64,000 nucleotides of DNA from Eledone cirrhosa (lineage: Eukaryota), in contig OZ024749.1 in assembly GCA_964016885.1 (NCBI GenBank), positions 8,928,001 through 8,992,000 on the forward strand, written 5' to 3'. Below, one piece after another: positions 13,997 through 47,748 of the stretch (positions are counted from its first letter, which is position 1; every line of letters starts with the position of its first letter). The notes under the pieces are model-generated. The model had not been told where the DNA came from. It worked only from the letters and a program-made list of their open reading frames with translations, and did no database searches. Made by a program: the position numbers and the translations under genes.

Positions 13997-14047
<51 letters not shown>

Positions 14048-14133
14048 TATGTATACGTACATACATATATGTATACAGACGTACAGTAGTATGTATATAT
14101 ATACATACATGCACACATATATATATGTACGTA

Positions 14134-14409
14134 TGGATTTACCGAAAATTTATTATAATGTTCGGTTTGTTTGTAAACAAACAGCCCGAATTAAGCCGTA
14201 CAGTGTTCGAAAACCATCGTCGCCCTTTTCTTCAACACTGACAAAGGAACGATGAACTAGTTTCAAGCTTATTAGCTATCGTCAGCATCGTATACCTTCC
14301 TGTCAGATGATTGAACGTTTGAAAGTATATACTTTCCTTATGCATATTAACGGCTGAGCAGCCTAATTTGCATATCGAGTGAGTTAGTACGGCTGATACT
14401 TAAATGTAA
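14134..14409 (-). mobile_element. ~275-bp non-coding HHR element with octamer motif, flanked by ~87-bp direct repeats
   Basis: HHR at 14249-14291 and ATGCAAAT at 14366-14373 on the minus strand; direct repeats at 14047-14133 and 14410-14498; related to 38096-38427. Confidence 0.7.
14249..14291 (-). ncRNA. Type I hammerhead ribozyme
   Basis: acgatg-CTGACGA-tagctaataagctt-GAAA-ctag-TT-catcgt; perfect 6-bp stem I, extended by ctgacagga/tcctttgtcag. Confidence 0.85.
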
Positions 14410-14587
14410 GTATGTATACGTACATACATATATGTATACTGACGTACAGTAGTATGTATATATATATACATACATGGACACATATATATATGTACGTACA
14501 CATATATATAGCATTATTAAGAGTGAGAAATGAAATTTCATTTCATTCTTTTCCATTTATTTATATATGTATATATGTATATATGTA

Positions 14588-20136: not shown

Positions 20137-21076
20137 GCAAAAGCTCTATTTAAATTGTTGGGATACAACAAACAAATATTTTTATAACTGATATAAAGCA
20201 CTCGACAAGTATTTGGACTAGATATACGATATTAACAAATGGAAACTATATTTATAAAACCATACCAGATAGAAAAATGCGTACAGCAAAAAAAAGTGAT
20301 ATTGTTGGAATATAAACCTTTAAAAATACAGGACAAGAAACTAAAATAAAACTTTAAAAGAATAGGACAAGAAACTAAGATAAAACTTTAAAAGAATAGG
20401 ACAAGAAATAAAAAATTTTCGGAGGTGCAGTGGACAGGGGAGAGGATGGGTAGGTGTGAAAGGTGGAGTGACGAGGGGGTGTATTAGTAGAGGTGTTAGT
20501 GGGATGTGTGTGTGTGTGTGTGTGAGAGAGAAGGGGTGTGGGGAGCGGGGAGAGGAAGGGGGAGAGAAAGGTGTGGGGGCCGGTGGAGGGAGTGTAGTGT
20601 ACTGGCGTGTGTGTGCGTGTTTGGATGAGTGTGTGTGTGGTGAAGGAGGTGTTAGTAGGTGTTAGTATACTGGTGGTGGGGAAAGGGTTGAATGCGGGTG
20701 TTAGTGGGGGTTAGTGGTGGTAGGGTGTGTAGAGTGGGGGTGTAAGTGGGTGTGTGTTCGTGTGTTTGGGGTCGGGGGGATGTTAGTGGTATTAGTTGTG
20801 GGGTGGTGTGAGTGGATGTGTGGGTGAGGGTTAGTGGTGGTAGTAGGGTGTGTGGTTAGTGTGAGTGCGTATATATATGTACCGGTGGGTGTGTGCGTGA
20901 TAAGAGGAGGGGGGAGAAAGGATGTTAGTATTGTTAGTTGGGGAAGGGTGGTCGGGTGTAGGGTGGGGGTGTTAGTATTGTTAGTTGTAGGGTGGACGGT
21001 GAAAAGGAGGAGTGTGTTAGTGGTGTTAGTGGGGGATATGTGTGAGTGGGGGGGAGGAAGACAGGGCGGTCGAAGG

Positions 21077-23804
21077 CTAAAGGAATAGGGGTGGGAAGTT
21101 CAGGCCGGGGGGAGTGTGGGTCTGTAGGGTGAAGATGGTGCGTTGTTCGACCCTGAGGAGGGTGGCGAGTGTTCCGTGGCATTGGAGTAGGCCACAGACT
21201 GTGAGGTGGTGCGCGGAATGTCCAGGGGAGCCAAAGTGGCGGGCGATGGGGGAACTACCGCCGAGACGAATATCTCGGAGGTGTTCGGTAAAACGGTCCG
21301 CCAGGCGATGTCCAGTCTGTCCGACGTAGGTTGCGCTGCACGCCGTGCAGCGAAGTCCATAGACTAGGTTGGAGGAGGTGCAGCGGAAGGCATGCCGGAC
21401 AGAGAGAGAGTGGCCGTTGGGACCCTGGAAAGTGGTGGTGTTGGTGATGTGGGGACAGGTGTTGAAACGAGGCCTGGAACAGGGAAGGGAGCCGGGAGGG
21501 AAAGAGAGCGTGGGTTGGGGGGTAGGGAGCTGCGGACGAGGAGGGTGCGGAGATTGCGTGCGCGTTTGAAGGAGGGAAGATGTGGGAGGTGGAGGAGTCG
21601 GACTGGAGGCGTCGGAAGGGGCTGAGGATGGTGCGGTGGAGGTGTAGGGTGGAGGGGTGGTAGGTGATGGGGAAGGGGAGACGGTAGGCGGGTGTGCGGT
21701 GGCGTGGGGTGAGGGTGGTGGAGCGGTGGACAGCACGGGCGCGAGTGAGAGCGGTGTGGACGAGAGGGGGGGGGTAACCTCTGCGGATGAAATGGCTAAC
21801 TAGGGAAAGGGCCTGGGACTCAAAGTCAGCATCTCGGCTCCAGAGGCGGCGGTTCTTGAGGAGTTGGGAGTAGGGAATAGAGTGTTTAGTGTGTGTAGGG
21901 TGGGAAGAGGTGAAGTCGAGGTAGCAGTGGGAGTCGGTGGGTTTGAAGAAGGCGGAGGTGACGAGGGAGTGGTGGGAGGGGTCGAAGGCGACGGAGATGT
22001 CTAAGAAGTGGACGTGGGTGGTGGAGATATAGGTGGTGAAGTGGAGGGAGGGGTGGAAGGAGCAGAAGAAGGAGAGAAAGGAGTCGAGCTGTTCTCGGGT
22101 GAGGGTCGTGGCTTCGATACAGTCGTCGATGTAACCACCGTAGAGTTCGGGCGTGGGGCCGGTGTACTGGGCAAAGATTTGGGCCTCAACATGGCCAACA
22201 AAAAGGTTGGCATAGTTCGGGCCCATTCTTGTACCCATGGCTACCCCCATGTTGGTAAAACTCACCCGAGAAGGAGAAACAGTTGAGGGTGAGGACCAAC
22301 TCGGCGTGGCGAAGGAGGGTGGGTGGAGGGGATGGGGGAGGGGGGTGGGCGAAGGTCGAGGTAGTACTTGAGGGCACGTAGGCCGTCGGCGTGGGGTATG
22401 ACTGTATAGAGCGACTTGATATCTAGGGTGAAGAGGAAGGGCTGTGGGCCGGGTGGGAAGGTGAAGGAGTCGAATAGGGAAAGGGCGTGGTTGGTGTCGG
22501 GGATGTGGGAGGGGAGGGTGGTGACGATGGGGGGCGAGGATGGAGTCAAGAAAGGCAGAGATGAGTTCGGTGAGGCAGTTGCAAGCGGAGACGATGGGGC
22601 GGCCGGGGTTGTCGAGTTTGTGGAGTTTGAGGAGGAAGTAGATAGTGGGGGTGGGGGGGACGATGAGGTGGGAAGCGGTGGGGGGAGAGGGAGGAGGAGA
22701 CAAGGTGTTGGATGGTGGAAGAAACTTGTTGTTGGTAGAGGGGTGTGGGATCGGAGGGTGTCACGGAGCTGCCTGAGGGCTTCAGCCGTGTAGAGGTCAG
22801 CGCGCCACACCACCACGGCGCCTCCCTTGTCCGCCGGTTTGATGACGATGTCATCTCGGCTACGGAGGGAGCGGAGAGCGAGTAGTTCGCCCCGTGAGAT
22901 GTTATTCCGTTGGGACCGGTGGTGGAAGTCGAAGCGATTTACTGCGCTACGGCTGGCATCGACGAACGCGTCCAGGGTGCTAAATTGCCCTGGGGCCGGC
23001 GTCCAAGATGATGGTCGTCGGCCCAGGGCGAGAAACGGGTCTGGGGCGTTCGGAGCCGGTGGCTTTTGACCGAAATGTGCCTGTAGCTTCGTGCGTCGCA
23101 CGAATCGCTCGACTTCCGTTCGGGTACGGAACTCGTCGCTGTGCGGAGTGTGGGGTATGAAGCGAGGGCCTCTACTGAGGAGTGAGCGCTCAGGTGCGGA
23201 GAGGGGAGGTCAGGGGGTATGGTGACAACAAGTGGTGGGGTTTGGGTGTGTGGGGGAGGAGGGGAGGGTGTGGTGAGAGGTGAGGTGGAGGGTGGAGATT
23301 CGGTAGGGGTGTGGGGTGAGGGAGGGGTGTGGAGTCATAGGAAGGGGGATTGAGGGGGGGGGGGGGGGGGGGGGGTAGCTTAAGGGCTTTGGTGGAGGTG
23401 AGGAAGAAGAAGAGGTCGTGGTTGAGGTTTTGGATGAAGAGGATGGCGTGGGCGAGGAGAGGGTGGCAGGCGGAGTTAAGGCGGAGGAGGGTGGGGGTCA
23501 GTTGGTAGTCAAGTTTGCGGATGGTGGAGAGGGAGGCGCGGAGGGAGTTGCCCATTAGGAGGCGCGAGGATCCGGTGAGGATACGTTGGGTGGAGGGGTG
23601 GAAGTGTAGACGGAAGCCGAGGAGGATAAGGTGGAGGTGGAGGCAATGGCTGAGGAAATGGATGTGGCTGGAGTGTCGGGTTTTGGCGAAGAGAAGGTAG
23701 GAGAGTTGAAGGGCCGAGGGGAGATAGCATGATGGGAGGAGGGGGGTGAAAAAAAGTTTGAGGCTGGTGTGGAGTTGGTGGTGAAAGGATCTCAGGCTGG
23801 GCAT
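21077..23804 (-). pseudogene. PLE polyprotein, multiply frameshifted
   Basis: IVIKPADKGGAVVV, NPGRPIVSAC, FTLDIKSLYTVIPH, GVAMGTRMGPNYANLFVG, YIDD, FLDI, KPTDSHCYL..TSSHP...SIPYSQ; GIY-YIG domain CTSSNLVYGLRC..C...YVGQTG..L..RF.EH. Confidence 0.92.
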
Positions 23805-24235
23805 GGTGGGCGTGGAGTGAAAGCAGGGGGAGGAATGAGAAGGAAGGTGTGTGAAGTGGGGGGGACGAAGGGGTGAGTGCGAAAGATAGGAAGAGACGGG
23901 GAAGGGAAAATCAAACCGAAATAACGTAAGGAGAGGAGAGTATACACAGGAAATCATGGACAAAAAATCATAGACAGAAATAAACAAGTACAGTAAATAC
24001 ATCAATCCAAAATAATGCAAAGAAAGGAAAAAACAAGTTGTGGAAAGGTGTGGGGGAAAATTCAGAGAGGGGTCACGGCGGATTAGATCGGGTTGAGCCG
24101 GTAGTCAAGGTAGTATTCCAAGGTGGTATGGAAGCCGTGGGAGCGTGTATTGTAAAATTGAAAGGGAACAAAACAGAGAGGCAGTACGAACAAAGGTTTA
24201 TTAGTTTCACGCTCTTGAGAGTGGGGTGGTGGTGG

Positions 24236-24273
24236 GGAACGACGTTTCGGGCATAAGCCCTTCTTCAGGCGAA
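24236..24273 (-). ncRNA. Minimal hammerhead motif of the GC-rich PLE
   Basis: CTGAAGA-agggcttatgccc-GAAA-cg-TC; stem I is weak. Confidence 0.7.
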
Positions 24274-24855
24274 AAGTGTGGGAAGAGAGTTCCAAGGGTG
24301 TGTTGGGGAGTGGGGGAGAGACATTTAGAAAAAGGGGGGTGAGTGGAAACGGTACAAATGAAAATAAATATGAAAGCATAATAAAAATAAAAATAAACAT
24401 GAAGTTAAACAAGTGGTGGAAGGGTGTGGGGCGTGTAGGGGTGGTGGCGGGTGGAGTGGGGAGAGGGAGACGGGGTGTCCGAGCGTGGAGGGCTGAAGGT
24501 GGTGTGTGTGTGTAGATGTATGTGAATGTGAGAGTTGGGTGAATGTGAGAGTTGGGGGAAGAACGGGGTTGCATGTTCAGGAAAAGGTGTGAGGGGTGGG
24601 TTGTAGGTCGGTGTGTGTGTGTGTGCGTGTCTGGATGGGGAGGGGTCAGATGGGGGGGGGGACAATTAGGTGGGAATAGGTGGGGGTGGGGGGAGGAGGG
24701 AGGAGGAGACAAGATGTATATATTAGAAAGTAAGGTTTTTTTACAAAATGAAAAATAACAGAGGTGTCCTACACGAGTGAAAGTATAAAGAAAAAAGATG
24801 AAATCGAAAATGCAACTGGAGTCTTATTTTTAAAAAAATATATATATTTATTTGG

Positions 24856-30134: not shown

Positions 30135-30448
30135 TATAAGATCAAAAGATGGTTAAAGGAGTTCCATGTATTTTATTATGCGCATTTCAAAAACAAACAT
30201 CATCATGCAATAATATTTGGGTTTTCATCAGATAAAACAGGAGAACATGATATGAAGGCTAAAAAACACTTGTGGATAGTGCAGTTTTAAATCAACATAT
30301 CATTGAAATGCGCATAATAAAATACATGGAACTCCTTTAACCATCTTTTGATCTTATATTATGTATACTCCAGTCCTACAAACTGTAGAGTGCTTCTTAT
30401 CCGATATCTGCATTGCTTTATTGTACTACAATAAAACTCACCTCCTAC

Positions 30449-30508
<60 letters not shown>

Positions 30509-30595
30509 GGAGGTGAGTTTTATTGTAGTACAATAAAGCAATGCAGATATCGGATAAGAAGCACTCTACAGTTTGTAGGACTGGAGTATACATAA
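30135..30595. mobile_element. Cluster of Naiad pLTR and 90-bp extension fragments in inverted arrangements; HHR at ~30169-30238 (-)
   Basis: Near-identical to 33601-33860. Confidence 0.85.
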
Positions 30596-33300: not shown

Positions 33301-33530
33301 CCAAATAAATATATATATATTTTTTTTAAATAAGACTCCAGTTGCATTTTCGGTTTCATCTTTTTTTCTTTATATATATATATATATAAGATCAAAGATG
33401 GTTTAAAGAGTTCCAATTTTTAACCATCTTTGATCTTATATTATTTATACTCTAGTCCTACAAACTGTAGAGTGCTACTTATCCGATATTTGCATTGCTT
33501 TATTGTGCTACAATAAAACTCACCTCCTAC

Positions 33531-33604
<74 letters not shown>

Positions 33605-34134
33605 GGAGGTGAGTTTTATTGTAGTACAATAAAGCAATGCAGATATCGGATAAGAAGCACTCTACAGTTTGTAGGACTGGAGTATACATAATATAAGATC
33701 AAAAGATGGTTAAAGGAGTTCCATGTATTTTATTATGCGCATTTCAAAAACAAACATCATCATGCAATAATATTTGTGTTTTCATCAGATAAAACAGGAG
33801 AACATGATATGAAGGCTAAAAAACACTTGTGGATAGTGCAGTTTTAAATCAACATATGAAAAGTGGTTTTAGATTGATGTGTGATATTGGGAAAAATATT
33901 TTATTTAGAGAGGGGGTGGGATGGAAAGGATGAAAAAGGGGAGGAGATGAGAGGGAGAGATGGGTGATAGAGAGAAAGAGATAGTTTTTATAACTGAGAG
34001 GAGATATATTGTTTTACATAGAGAGGTTGAAAACCGTTGGAAGATAATGTATAAATTAAAAAAAATTGAAAATTAACGAAGGGAGGATATGTGCGAGGAA
34101 AAAATATTTTATTTAGGGAGGGGGGGGGGGGAGG

Positions 34135-36489
34135 ATGAAATCTGAATTCACCAAACTTCTTATTGAAAAAACTGACTCCTTCGTAAGAAGACTTAGATGG
34201 ACAGCCTATTTCTATGACCAGCGCCTAAAAGGGAACTTCCATACCAAAGAACATAACTTCCTCGATCATCTTTTTAATTCTAGACGAAATCCTCCTTCCA
34301 ACAAAAATCTAGTACAATTCGAGGAAGAATTAACTAAAATAATTAAAAATCTTAAATTCAAGAGATACCCTTACAAAGGACAAGAGCACCTTGTAAATCT
34401 CAAGAACACAATCTGTAACCTAAATTCCTCAAAAAATGTTTTAGTCCTCTCTGACAAAACCAATAACTTATATGGTATTTCCAAGGATAATTATAACAAC
34501 CTTATCCTAAAGGAACTTAGGAAAAAGTATCGTAAAACCAACCATGAAAATTTAGAATACATAAACCTTGAAGCCTATGATATTATGTCAAAACTTGGCA
34601 TTGAAAAAAAGACCGAACCATTCCTCCCAAGAACTCCGAGGATAAATCTCAAGGATCACAAAAACAATTTTCGCACTGAACTACCTGTTAGATTAATCGC
34701 CCCCTCTAAATCTGATTTGGGGGTTGTTAGTAAAGCCATCTTGGATAGAATTATCCCACAGGTTAGTTCTAATTGCTCTTCTTTGAACCTAAATTTATGG
34801 TTTGGTACTTCTGAAGTGATTGGCTGGTTCAACAAATTGGATAATAAAAACAAACTAAAATTTATTCAATTTGATATTGCCAGCTACTATTCCTCCATTT
34901 CGCCTTCACTTCTCAATAATGCTCTATCTTTCGCACTTAAATATTCTGACATCACCACAGATGAACTTCACATCATCCTCACCGCACGTAAAACCATCCT
35001 AGAGTTCAACAACGAATATTGGACCAGAGCCGATACCTCTAACAACTTCGACATCACAATGGGAGCATCCGATTCATCCCAATTGACTGATTTAATTGGT
35101 ATCTTCATTTTGAACTCTTTGAGTCGGAAAATTCCTCAACTTCGCGGTGGAATTTATCGTGACGATGGACTCTTTACTATCCTAAATTGCAATATAGTTA
35201 ACCTTAATATTATTAAGAACAATATACGTAATCTCTTTAACCAACATAACCTAAAAATTGAATTTGATAATAGTATCAAACTAGCTAATTTCTTGGATGT
35301 ATCTCTTAATCTTGACACTGGCCTATATTACCCTTACCATAAAAACAATGAGAACCTAAATTATGTTAACTTTAAATCTAGCCATCCTACCAATATCAAG
35401 AGTGCTATAGTTAGTAATATTGGAAAAAGAATATCTAACATATCTTCTAATAAAAACATCTTTGATGCTAACGCCAATTACTATAATAACGCACTTTCTA
35501 AAGCCGGCTATCCAGATAAAATCAAATATAGTAAAGAAACAAATTCTAGAAAAACTTACAGTAGAATAATTAATCATGACCATTCCAATAATTTTAATAA
35601 AAGACCTAGATACAAAAACATAATCTGGTATAATGCTCCTTTCTCCATCTCTATTAATAACAATATTCCTAAATTATTTTTTAGTGCCTTAAATAAATGC
35701 TTCCCTCCCTCATATATCTATAGTAAAATATTTAACAAACACACCATCAAATTTTTGTATTCTACATCCTCCAATATTTCCAACATCATCTCTAAACACA
35801 ACAATAAAATACTAAATACTAAATCTCTTCCTTCCAATATTGAATTTCATAATAACAGTAATAGTACTCCCGACGTCATTGTAAACCCTAGGCTAACTTC
35901 TGTAAACCCAAATACAACGTCAAACACAACTTCGCTAAATGTTCATAATCCAACTCTAAATCAAGAAACTATTATTCCTATTATTCCTATCGCAAACAAC
36001 TTCTCCAATCCAATTCCTTCTATAGATAACACTAGGTCACTCATTAATAATCTCTCTAATTGCAACTGCCGCATTAAAAATAAATGTCCTCTCAACAACC
36101 ATTGTCTCGATAAAAACTTAATTTATGAATGTAAAATTATAACTAGCACCAATTCCTTCACCTATTTTGGCTCCACTTACACCTCTTTTAAAGCTCGTCT
36201 CTATAATCATCATTCATGTTTCAAATACAAACTTAAAAGAACCAACACTGCTCTCTCAGAACTCATATGGTCCTTAAAAGACAAAAACATTAAATATACC
36301 ATCTTTTGGAAGAAGGTTTCTTCTGCATCCTCATACTTGAACAGCTCTCTATCTAAAATCTGTAATCTCTGCCTAAATGAAAAATTTACCATTATCTCTA
36401 ACCTAGATTCTATAATAAATAGACGTACAGATTTGTTTTCTATTTGCCTGCATAAATTCCATAGGACATTTCACAAAGTATACAGTTAA
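34135..36489 (+). CDS. PLE reverse transcriptase + GIY-YIG endonuclease (Naiad-like), 784 aa, uninterrupted
   Basis: SDKTNNLY, LKDHKNNF..VRLIAPSKS, FIQFDIASYYSSI, FDITMGASD, GIYRDDGL, NFLDV, YVNFKSSHP, IWYNAPFS; CNCR..KCPL..CL..LIYEC...YFGST..FK.R..NH; CNLCLNEK...NRRTDLFSICLH. Confidence 0.93.
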   Translation: MKSEFTKLLIEKTDSFVRRLRWTAYFYDQRLKGNFHTKEHNFLDHLFNSRRNPPSNKNLVQFEEELTKIIKNLKFKRYPYKGQEHLVNLKNTICNLNSSKNVLVLSDKTNNLYGISKDNYNNLILKELRKKYRKTNHENLEYINLEAYDIMSKLGIEKKTEPFLPRTPRINLKDHKNNFRTELPVRLIAPSKSDLGVVSKAILDRIIPQVSSNCSSLNLNLWFGTSEVIGWFNKLDNKNKLKFIQFDIASYYSSISPSLLNNALSFALKYSDITTDELHIILTARKTILEFNNEYWTRADTSNNFDITMGASDSSQLTDLIGIFILNSLSRKIPQLRGGIYRDDGLFTILNCNIVNLNIIKNNIRNLFNQHNLKIEFDNSIKLANFLDVSLNLDTGLYYPYHKNNENLNYVNFKSSHPTNIKSAIVSNIGKRISNISSNKNIFDANANYYNNALSKAGYPDKIKYSKETNSRKTYSRIINHDHSNNFNKRPRYKNIIWYNAPFSISINNNIPKLFFSALNKCFPPSYIYSKIFNKHTIKFLYSTSSNISNIISKHNNKILNTKSLPSNIEFHNNSNSTPDVIVNPRLTSVNPNTTSNTTSLNVHNPTLNQETIIPIIPIANNFSNPIPSIDNTRSLINNLSNCNCRIKNKCPLNNHCLDKNLIYECKIITSTNSFTYFGSTYTSFKARLYNHHSCFKYKLKRTNTALSELIWSLKDKNIKYTIFWKKVSSASSYLNSSLSKICNLCLNEKFTIISNLDSIINRRTDLFSICLHKFHRTFHKVYS

Positions 36490-37510
36490 TATTCAATTCT
36501 TTATCAATTTAGAATCTTTTCTCAAAGGCACATATACATACACCTCTTTAAAATATACCCATCTTCCTACCTTACTTTAAAGGGCATTATACACTCTATA
36601 ATACTTGTTTACTCATTACCCTCATTCTATCTTCACCTTGTAAAATCCTTCATAACATATACATTTGTTTTTTTGACGTTAGAATATTCATCCGCAATCA
36701 TTATTATTTCTTCTCTCTATCATAAATCTTTTTAATCTCAATTTCATCCTTAATTTATTATTTTTTTCTCCCCATCAACGAACTCATTCTTAATACATAT
36801 TAACTCTTTATTCGCATATATTATCAATTCCTTCAATATACAAACTTTAACTTCACATTATTTTTCTCAAATCCTTCTACACACAAACCTTAATAATTTT
36901 TCTCTTCGTTAATTTTGAAATTGCCACAATACTTATCAACATACACTTTTTTTTTACGTTAGAATATTCATCCACAATTATTATTTTTTCTCTCTATCTT
37001 CATACATAAATTCCCTTCGTTAATTTTCAAATTCCTTTAATTTATACATTATCTTCCAACGGTTCTCAACCTCTCTGTGTAAAACAATATATCTTTTTCT
37101 TAGTTATAAAAACTATCTCTTTCTCTCTATCACCCATCTCTCCCTCTCCACCTTCACTCTCATCTCCTCCCCCTGTTTTCATCTCCCCCCCCTCCCTAAA
37201 TAAAATATTTTTTCCTCGCACATATCCTCCCTTCGTTAATTTTCAAATTTTTTTAATTTATACATTATCTTCCAACGGTTTTCAACCTCTCTATGTAAAA
37301 CAATATATCTCCTCTCAGTTATAAAAACTATCTCTTTCTCTCTATCACCCATCTCTCCCTCTCATCTCCTCCCCTTTTTCATCCTTTCCACCCCCCTCTC
37401 TAAATAAAATATTTTTCCCAATATCACACATCAATCTAAAACCACTTTTCATATGTTGATTTAAAACTGCACTATCCACAAGTGTTTTTTAGCCTTCATA
37501 TCATGTTCTG

Positions 37511-37577
37511 TTTTATCTGATGAAAACACAAATATTATTGCATGATGATGTTTGTTTTTGAAATGCGCATAATAAAA
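37511..37577 (+). ncRNA. Type I hammerhead ribozyme in the Naiad 3' pLTR
   Basis: ttttat-CTGATGA-aaacacaaat...gtttgttttt-GAAA-tgcgca-TA-ataaaa; palindromic stem III. Confidence 0.9.
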
Positions 37578-37609
37578 TATATGGAACTCCTTTAACCATC
37601 TTTTGATCT

Positions 37610-37723
<114 letters not shown>

Positions 37724-37739
37724 GTATATATATATTTAG

Positions 37740-38030
37740 AAAAAGGAAAAGAATGACTTCACATGTACTTCTAAACAATTTAATTTTATAATTTTACAAT
37801 TTGGATTTGTAGATCTAATAAATTCTGTGTTAACTTCGGCGGGGAAATTTTTAAAGATTTCTGGCTAACTTCCCTGGAGAACTTTCTCGCATTCGCTGGT
37901 GGCGGTTGTCAAACTGAGATCAATAACAAAGAACTTACTATATCTACAAAACCAAATTGTAAAATTATAGCATTATAAAATTAAACTGAATTGTTTAGAA
38001 CTACAAGTGAAGTCATTCTTTTCATTTTTA
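37740..38030. mobile_element. Foldback/MITE-like element with ~80-bp imperfect inverted termini
   Basis: aaaagaatgacttcac.tgta.ttctaaacaatt...tttacaatttgg.tttgtagat is mirrored at 37942-38025. Confidence 0.6.
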
Positions 38031-38065
38031 TTTAGACATACCTAACTGTACCAAGGAATTCACAC

Positions 38066-38095
<30 letters not shown>

Positions 38096-38096
<1 letters not shown>

Positions 38097-38427
38097 CGTA
38101 TATTGAAGCGAAATCCTATTTCTTTTCTATTATAAGTTGAGCCAACTTATGCAGCTTCATATGCAAATATGCAAATGAGATTAATCACCTCGTTTACACA
38201 GACGAGAAAACTATTTATTCTCGCCTGTCTTCTAGTCCAGCAGTCGCAAGCAGTGGGAAGGACCGGCCTGACGATGGCCAGTTAAGCCTGAAATGCATAG
38301 ACGGTTGTCCCTCCTTGCTTCTACTGGACATCACGAGAGGGCGTTAGCCCCCCCCCCCCCCCCCCCCGGTGTTTGCATACCTACGGCTTCCTAAAACCGT
38401 ATTTCTTTGGGGATACGAAATATTTAT
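38096..38427 (+). mobile_element. ~330-bp non-coding HHR element with tandem octamer motifs
   Basis: ATGCAAAT twice at 38161-38176; HHR at 38262-38305; inserted between (TA)n and (CA)n. Confidence 0.7.
38262..38305 (+). ncRNA. Type I hammerhead ribozyme
   Basis: accggc-CTGACGA-tggccagttaagcct-GAAA-tgca-TA-gacggt; outer stem tccagcag..gcaag/cttgc..ctactgga. Confidence 0.82.
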
Positions 38428-38494
<67 letters not shown>

Positions 38495-47539: not shown

Positions 47540-47748
47540 ACGATATTAACAAATGGAAACTACATTTATAAAACCATATTTATTTCATTAAACATATTTC
47601 AAGGACACCAAGTTAAATTATGGTGTGCTTTCATCAGATATTATATTTTATCTGATGAAAGCACACCATAATTTAACTTGGTGTCCTTGAAACATGTATA
47701 ATGAAACAAATATGGTTTTATAAATATAGTTTCCATTTGTTAATATCG

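Follow-up and report, generated by a model that had tools for sequence, protein, structure and literature searches.

A dispersed hammerhead ribozyme repeat in the genome of Eledone cirrhosa, here called F1, carries upstream of its ribozyme a 12-mer that is identical to a promoter element of the host U6 and tRNA-Sec genes. We analysed this repeat in a stretch of 64,000 nt (the window; contig OZ024749.1, positions 8,928,001 to 8,992,000) and across the 3.0-Gb genome. That F1 is a non-LTR retrozyme, and as such an element of a known kind, is very probable. In the reading that we favour, and regard as fairly probable when taken as a whole, F1 has a U6-class promoter word plus TATA from which it is likely transcribed; its RNA is predicted to cleave itself as a dimer and is likely circularised, and a Penelope-like reverse transcriptase likely inserts copies of it into (TA)n tracts. 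We infer both self-promotion and self-cleavage from the sequence of the element.

In the window, the F1 insertion is located at about 14047-14561. The first-pass annotation had proposed a non-coding unit of ~275 nt; its non-coding nature was confirmed, but the insertion is larger and the underlying unit measures 429 nt. Alignment to a natural unit (L023) placed the sense block on the minus strand at 14047-14498. Numbering the 429-nt unit as offset (u) from the A of ATGCAAAT, the block starts with a partial upstream unit (u240-347), lacks 66 nt internally (u348-413, junction 14389/14388) and continues with the next unit from u414 through u326. On the 5′ side, sequence comparison identified an inverted arm (u350-393) on the plus strand at 14518-14561, which abuts a (TA)n tract. 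The 3′ end of F1 lies at a (TA)n target tract at 14001-14045, and a second long TA-rich tract runs from 14563 onward. The 12-mer, TATGCAAATTAG, is found on the minus strand at 14363-14374 and is identical to the element at −78 of the U6 locus L077 and at −80 of both tRNA-Sec loci. A TATATA box follows on the same strand at 14326-14331, 42 nt from the A of ATGC, and transcription of this copy is predicted to start (+1) near 14301. As had been annotated, the octamer is positioned upstream of a hammerhead on the minus strand: the first base of ATGCAAAT is 14373, and C3 of the CTGACGA core (14285) lies 88 nt further downstream.

Genome-wide we found 2,649 F1 candidates, and the best 40 scored besides the window copy were 95-98% identical. 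No co-oriented ORF was found upstream of the unit in 150 element loci, in agreement with the annotation of the repeat as dispersed and non-coding. The 429-nt unit is present head-to-tail in two tandem loci (L019 and L023), other F1-type units measure 408-501 nt and related arrays contain 6-30 units. F1 has a GC content of 36% and is strongly self-paired. An inverted arm is present at the 5′ side in 16/30 loci and (TA)5 or longer at the 3′ end in 24/30, and the second family described below, F2, shows the same pattern (17/30 and 24/30 loci, respectively). What precedes the F1 unit is either its own 3′ portion, or an inverted arm, or flanking sequence. The 3′ ends fall into two preferred classes, 18/30 ending by u335 and 10/30 running into u345-395, while 2/30 continue. 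With these partial tandems, inverted 5′ arms and (TA)n targets, F1 insertions look Penelope-like, and they match the anatomy of Penelope-like element (PLE) insertions as described in PMC8557442.

To compare the octamer with host promoters, we collected host small-RNA genes by Rfam family. The octamer proved to be part of a 12-mer, TATGCAAATKAG, that lies at −77 to −80 of host U6, U6atac, RNase MRP and tRNA-Sec genes. The host class can be written as TATG[CG][AT]AAT[GT]AG, with TATA at −30/−31. It was found in two single U6 loci and a U6 array (three distinct promoters), in the best U6atac locus, in RNase MRP and in both tRNA-Sec loci, MRP and tRNA-Sec having been looked up after the motif was defined. 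The U6 loci L089 and L090 and five of the six U6atac loci, which are probably pseudogenes, have no 12-mer at −78. In the U6 array copies L082 and L083, an insertion of ~190 nt between TATA box and gene start displaces the 12-mer. No 12-mer was found at that place in U1, U2, U4, U5, 7SK or RNase P; in most of these genes ATCAGT or a close variant is located at −56 to −67, more precisely at −56 to −59 in U1/U2/U4/U5 and at −64/−67 in the T-run-terminated 7SK and RNase P. The host promoters can be sorted into a 12-mer class (L076, L077, L078, L103, L260, L262 and L263) and an ATCAGT class (L091, L063, L282, L287, L261 and L109), and in many promoters of both classes TTACCTCCCTT occurs as a distal element between about −260 and −290. 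The U3 promoters (L293-L298) do not contain ATCAGT; three of these six loci harbour a 12-mer with two mismatches, TATGTAAAATAR, at about −74, 42 nt from TATA as in F1.

The motif is retained in the element. Exact ATGCAAATTAG was found in 27/30 F1 copies and exact ATGCAAATGAG in 26/30 F2 copies, and in either family the distance to the TATA that comes after it is constant; the octamer is positionally conserved across genomic copies. In the examined F1 unit sequence we found neither ATCAGT, the motif of host U1/U2 promoters, nor the distal TTACCTCCCTT, and the word of the element is that of the U6 class. Hence the earlier suggestion of an snRNA-type promoter was borne out as a match to host small-RNA promoters, but its proposed layout of a distal octamer and a separate PSE has to be replaced by a proximal U6-class element plus TATA. 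Since the 12-mer equals a host promoter word, the element likely drives its own transcription, and a working promoter in this retrozyme seems probable to us.

The distance between motif and TATA is 46-48 in all seven host promoters, whereas it is 42 in F1 (29/30), 43 in F2 (27/30), 43 in F3, 42 in F5 and within 42-43 in F6. The host spacing was found only in F4 (47; 8/15 copies with a TATA call) and in L176 (48). In insects this spacing is tightly conserved (PMC1761439). The offset of 4-5 nt from host promoters is one of the observations expected if F1 were an ordinary retrozyme, in which the 12-mer is shared by ancestry, is vestigial or kept as an RNA hairpin arm or protein site, and transcription comes from host read-through. 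We consider this explanation unlikely. It also draws on the lack of excess conservation within families: variation within F1 is 0.8% for the 12-mer and 1.0% for the spacer, conservation is 0.85 versus 0.82 in F5 and 0.83 versus 0.81 in F4, and the 12-mer is no better conserved than the spacer in any of the three. This is what would be expected of dead copies, in which case selection becomes visible only between families. In addition, 12-mer and TATA lie within predicted hairpins in F1-F3, so an RNA-level reason for keeping them is possible. However, the arm that contains the 12-mer is fixed while the arm that pairs with it differs among F1, F2 and F3. Moreover, the 12-mer is a word of host promoters, its distance to the TATA behind it is constant within each family, and in F4, an old family, this distance is 47, as in host genes. 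These points favour a promoter function of the motif.

A second unit, assigned to F2, lies on the plus strand at 38096-38430, opposite in strand to the first, with its core at 38268, helix III ATGCAT and an AUA triplet. Its 12-mer, TATGCAAATGAG, is located at 38168 after an 8-nt duplication. The F2 unit is 333 nt long (one full tandem, L044), and 2,729 candidates were found genome-wide, the best matches being 89-92% identical. The two window copies had been described as two units of one family with the same order of parts. This order is indeed the same, but blastn detected no similarity between the copies, which represent two families. The short shared blocks that had been taken as a sign of kinship are weak evidence by themselves: among shuffles, 66% of such sequence pairs have at least one 8-mer in common, and 7% a 10-mer. 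AGGGCG, TACGGCTT and GGAAGG were rejected as proof of F1-F2 kinship because they are near chance in shuffles; the 'ggaagg' of the window F2 copy differs from GGGAGG in the F2 copies compared. The octamer is significant because its 12-mer context matches host promoters and not because blocks are shared.

The 12-mer appeared in 10/20,000 shuffles of the F1 unit. The genome contains 37,404 exact 12-mers versus 623 for a reversed control, and a CTGANGA core 72-102 nt 3′ of the 12-mer was matched 27,266 times versus 0 in the control. In total, 12-mer and hammerhead core are combined in at least seven diverged families, most of which were first found through the motif itself; F3-F8 were revealed by patterns that excluded F1 and F2. 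F3 forms arrays of 461-468-nt units with a canonical G-C at 10.1/11.1, and F4-F8 are older families. In blastn searches F1 aligned with F6 and partly with F3, and F2 with F7. For F4, F5 and F8, similarity hardly goes beyond the motif and AT-rich stretches, and the only promoter-side match of F1 to any of these three is the 11-12-nt motif. When the hammerhead part was the sole query, the 12-mer was present within two mismatches in 16/29 F5 and 13/29 F4 copies; many of the F4/F5 copies without it look 5′-truncated. Eleven further hammerhead-like cores of the window were checked, and none is accompanied by the 12-mer. A strict motif-blind hammerhead scan, performed on loci chosen for these families and with a descriptor that missed the hammerhead of the coding element PLE-B (see below), gave 277 matches, of which 274 belonged to these families and 267 had the motif.

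Several loci of the superfamily deserve mention. The F3 arrays L110-L139 (C1:5.74 Mb) comprise ~30 near-identical units of 466-467 nt with the canonical G10.1-C11.1 pair and are the best candidate for expression and cleavage tests. An F3-type solo copy (L101:150-630) with a GUC triplet lies ~0.9 kb from the U1 gene that opens a U1 array, and stops exactly at its own T-run. In L052, which is the same as L418, an F1 fragment is joined to an F2 copy at a common ATGCAT with no spacer (~1954-1989), likely by a template switch. This chimera suggests that one machinery copies both families.

The F1 hammerhead is of type I. On the minus strand, its CTGACGA core (C3-A9) is located at 14279-14285, followed by helix II at 14265-14278, with a U.U at the base, four base pairs (AGCT/AGCT) and an AATA loop, and by GAAA (14264), the palindromic helix III ACTAGT and a GUU triplet at 14255-14264. 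The predicted cut site lies between 14255 and 14254, at u118/119 of the unit. Folding placed the hammerhead in an extended stem I at 14231-14315 (z −2.8; 2/200 shuffles fold equally well). The core, the AGCT/AGCT stem II, the GAAA and the long stem I confirm the annotation of a hammerhead in a long stem I; the hammerhead is not canonical, as the U.U occupies 10.1/11.1 in 30/30 copies, the triplet is GUU and helix III is just a 6-nt palindrome. Rfam returned no hammerhead match at the F1 unit at E≤10 and, for the window, only AT-repeat noise among the 150 matches listed; a repeat search of the window was dominated by microsatellites. An axolotl hammerhead with U.U at the base of helix II does cleave, according to PMC7229834.

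Hammerheads covary across the families. Of 112 distinct cores linked to a 12-mer, 104 pair at least 5/6 in stem I, a lenient count since the pairing register was picked for maximal pairing, and 84 of these 104 have a palindromic helix III. The palindromes vary (ACTAGT, ATGCAT, ACATGT, ACAGCTGT, AATCGATT and others). At H17, G is found in only four cores. The circular fold of the unit has a z of −6.9. When two hammerheads were cofolded, the dimer was 4.6 kcal/mol below two monomers; core bases are paired in this cofold, which is therefore no evidence for the active fold. For Xenopus, 8/9 retrozyme dimers assayed failed to cleave (bioRxiv 10.64898/2026.07.22.740005).

Next we mapped the 5′ ends of 30 F1 and 30 F2 copies with a query starting at the cut site. 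Ends at the cut site were seen in 0/30 F1 and 1/30 F2 copies, whereas 18/30 copies of each family extended to the 12-mer or beyond, and there was no pile-up at either the cut site or the predicted start. The template of F1 and F2 is continuous over cut site, start site, promoter and T-run. As 5′ ends pass both cut site and promoter, the copied RNA was likely circular or multimeric. This continuity can be accounted for by a religated circle or by an uncut multimer, but not by a terminated Pol III transcript. The missing ends at the cut site are likewise consistent with a rarely cutting ribozyme.

These ends bear on a further explanation, namely that F1 is a U6-like, SINE-type Pol III element whose main template is an RNA that starts at ~u72 and terminates in the T-run close to the end of the unit. 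T-runs come after every host gene that has the motif at −77 to −80, and a T4-T6 run is found 33-50 nt ahead of the next 12-mer in F1, F2, F3 and one F4 unit, near the longer class of 3′ ends. Such an RNA would be without promoter, yet 18/30 copies per family reach the promoter and just 4/30 end close to the predicted +1 (40-62 nt upstream of the cut). F1 3′ ends often lie several bases past T4, and the 18/30 that end at u335 do so earlier. T-run avoidance in the predicted transcript was not significant either (probability of a run-free shuffle 0.54, 0.41 and 0.16), and 34 T4 runs were counted in the bodies of 35 F3 units, about one each. We regard this explanation as very unlikely.

Combining the insertion anatomy with the retrozyme cycle proposed in PMC7229834 suggests the following cycle for F1. 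The promoter of one tandem unit would fire ~72 nt downstream, and the RNA would pass the promoter of the next unit up to the next hammerhead. Two hammerheads would then pair their palindromes into helix III and free a unit-length RNA, which a host ligase could close. A PLE reverse transcriptase/endonuclease would prime at one of two AU-rich sites and copy for more than one round; in this way a promoter upstream of its own start site could be inherited. If the promoter works, the chances are about even for Pol II, somewhat below even for leaky Pol III and small for the use of both. Pol II is slightly favoured because the RNA must cross T4-T6 runs. A more speculative proposal, which we consider possible but rather doubtful, is that a retrozyme lineage took a Pol III-class external promoter of the host and that a motif-to-TATA distance shortened from 47 to 42-43, by about half a turn of the helix, converted it to a Pol II promoter. 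After such a switch, the RNA could continue past the element's own T-runs, and the promoter could be copied together with the circle. Indirect support comes from the positions of ATCAGT by class, from the U3 spacing of 42 and from F4, the old family with a spacing of 47, in which T-runs follow the core at 39-76 nt, in contrast to the abundant families, whose spacing is short.

F1 likely depends on PLE-type machinery, and the retrozyme families coexist with PLE-like elements in this genome. The candidate helper in the window is a young coding PLE-like element (PLE-B) on the plus strand at 34117-37617, with a 790-aa frame and a hammerhead at 37517 but no 12-mer. Including its hammerhead-bearing 3′ repeat and an inverted 5′ arm at 33788 it covers 33700-37617, and its 150 listed genomic matches are 97-100% identical. 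In the PLE-B family some copies have frames of ~820 aa (97-99% identity), and the hammerhead lies ~1 kb past the ORF in 27/30 loci. A window scan revealed a second, frameshifted PLE-like element on the minus strand at 20300-24400, with a minimal hammerhead at 24268. The Atlas look-alikes have GIY-YIG, RVT_1 or HTH_animal in part of their members, while a Pfam scan and a PDB search with the PLE proteins gave no matches; the clade of the window PLEs may be Hydra-like.

The insertion anatomy of F1, being that of PLEs, raises the question of whether the unit is the pseudo-LTR of a further coding PLE, as Xenopus retrozymes derive from pLTRs (bioRxiv 10.64898/2026.07.22.740005). We give this idea very little credit, with the reservation that two PLE families were probed. 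The 12-mer was found downstream of the endonuclease in 0/30 PLE-A loci, where the hammerhead was reached within the flank in only 9/30, and in 1/30 PLE-B loci, in this one without a hammerhead. The sequence preceding the unit, as described above, is its own 3′ part, inverted arm or flank, and a co-oriented upstream ORF was also missing in 58 F4/F5 loci. PLE protein matches occurred at 6/150 element loci, all of them downstream or on the opposite strand. The annotated distinction from PLE pLTRs holds for both coding PLEs tested. In a search for partners by direct junctions in 418 loci, we found the one F1-F2 chimera and no junction that would identify a helper. Elsewhere in the window, further hammerhead-like repeats without the 12-mer are present at 47637/47652, 57221, 31058 and 18360, some as inverted pairs. 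A ~300-nt element with imperfect terminal inverted repeats, possibly a MITE, adjoins the F2 copy at 37737-38040. Long inverted repeats around (TA)n at 30365-30589 and 33447-33685 have Rfam plant miRNA hairpin scores below threshold and are probably inverted repeat tails.

For the source of the high constitutive expression of animal retrozymes, we here offer a candidate promoter. As it is defined by identity to the host U6, U6atac, MRP and tRNA-Sec promoters, the question can be tested with point mutants. F1 illustrates how an upstream promoter, which a SINE cannot carry, would be inherited by a mobile element that has a circular or tandem intermediate. Moreover, the two small-RNA promoter classes defined here are useful for the design of U6-driven expression in this animal group. 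If the spacing switch were true, the more than 27,000 cassettes of promoter and ribozyme would be a natural series on polymerase choice at snRNA promoters, and also a large pool of binding sites for U6 factors.

Among known systems, the hammerheads of PLE pseudo-LTRs share with F1 the palindromic helix III, partial tandems, an inverted 5′-truncated arm, (TA)n targets and alternative 3′ ends ~40-57 nt apart (Cervera & de la Pena 2014, PMC4209133; Craig et al. 2021, PMC8557442). In contrast to them, F1 has no ORF and no G10.1-C11.1 pair, its stem I is long, and it contains the 12-mer that both PLE repeats of the window lack. Metazoan non-LTR retrozymes are likewise tandem repeats of a short, non-coding unit; each unit has one type I hammerhead, low GC and strong self-pairing, and they coexist with PLEs (PMC7229834; bioRxiv 10.64898/2026.07.22.740005). 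Their units measure 170-400 nt, with 350-390 bp in mussels (Cervera & de la Pena 2020, PMC7229834), or range over 51-972 bp (Li et al., bioRxiv 10.64898/2026.07.22.740005). The units found here reach 429-501 nt, so that F1 is slightly above the former range and within the latter, and no pLTR parent was found among the two PLEs tested. In the parts read of these two sources, no promoter is named for metazoan retrozymes, PMC7229834 using the word only for T7 constructs, and no cephalopod is mentioned. Our search of the literature, conducted mostly at the level of listings, returned no description of an octopus retrozyme, no U6-class promoter of a retrozyme and no 12-mer motif.

Newt satellite 2 resembles F1 as a hammerhead tandem repeat with a dimer-dependent ribozyme, as is predicted for F1. 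The newt repeat has an octamer/PSE promoter, whereas the motif here is the host U6-class proximal element plus TATA. Transcription of the newt repeat by Pol II from an snRNA-type promoter is given as a secondary statement in PMC2220036 and PMC6765202. The candidate promoter of F1 is an upstream, type-3-like element. In this it differs from the schistosome hammerhead repeat Sm-alpha, the promoter of which is tRNA-like and gene-internal in type. The SINE-like schistosome repeats have their own promoter, with the upstream unit transcribing the next one, apparently by Pol III (PMC6765202). Self-promoting hammerhead repeats have a precedent in newts and schistosomes; what appears to be new in F1 and its relatives is that their motif matches a defined class of host promoters exactly and is kept across many families at very high copy number, with a shifted spacing.
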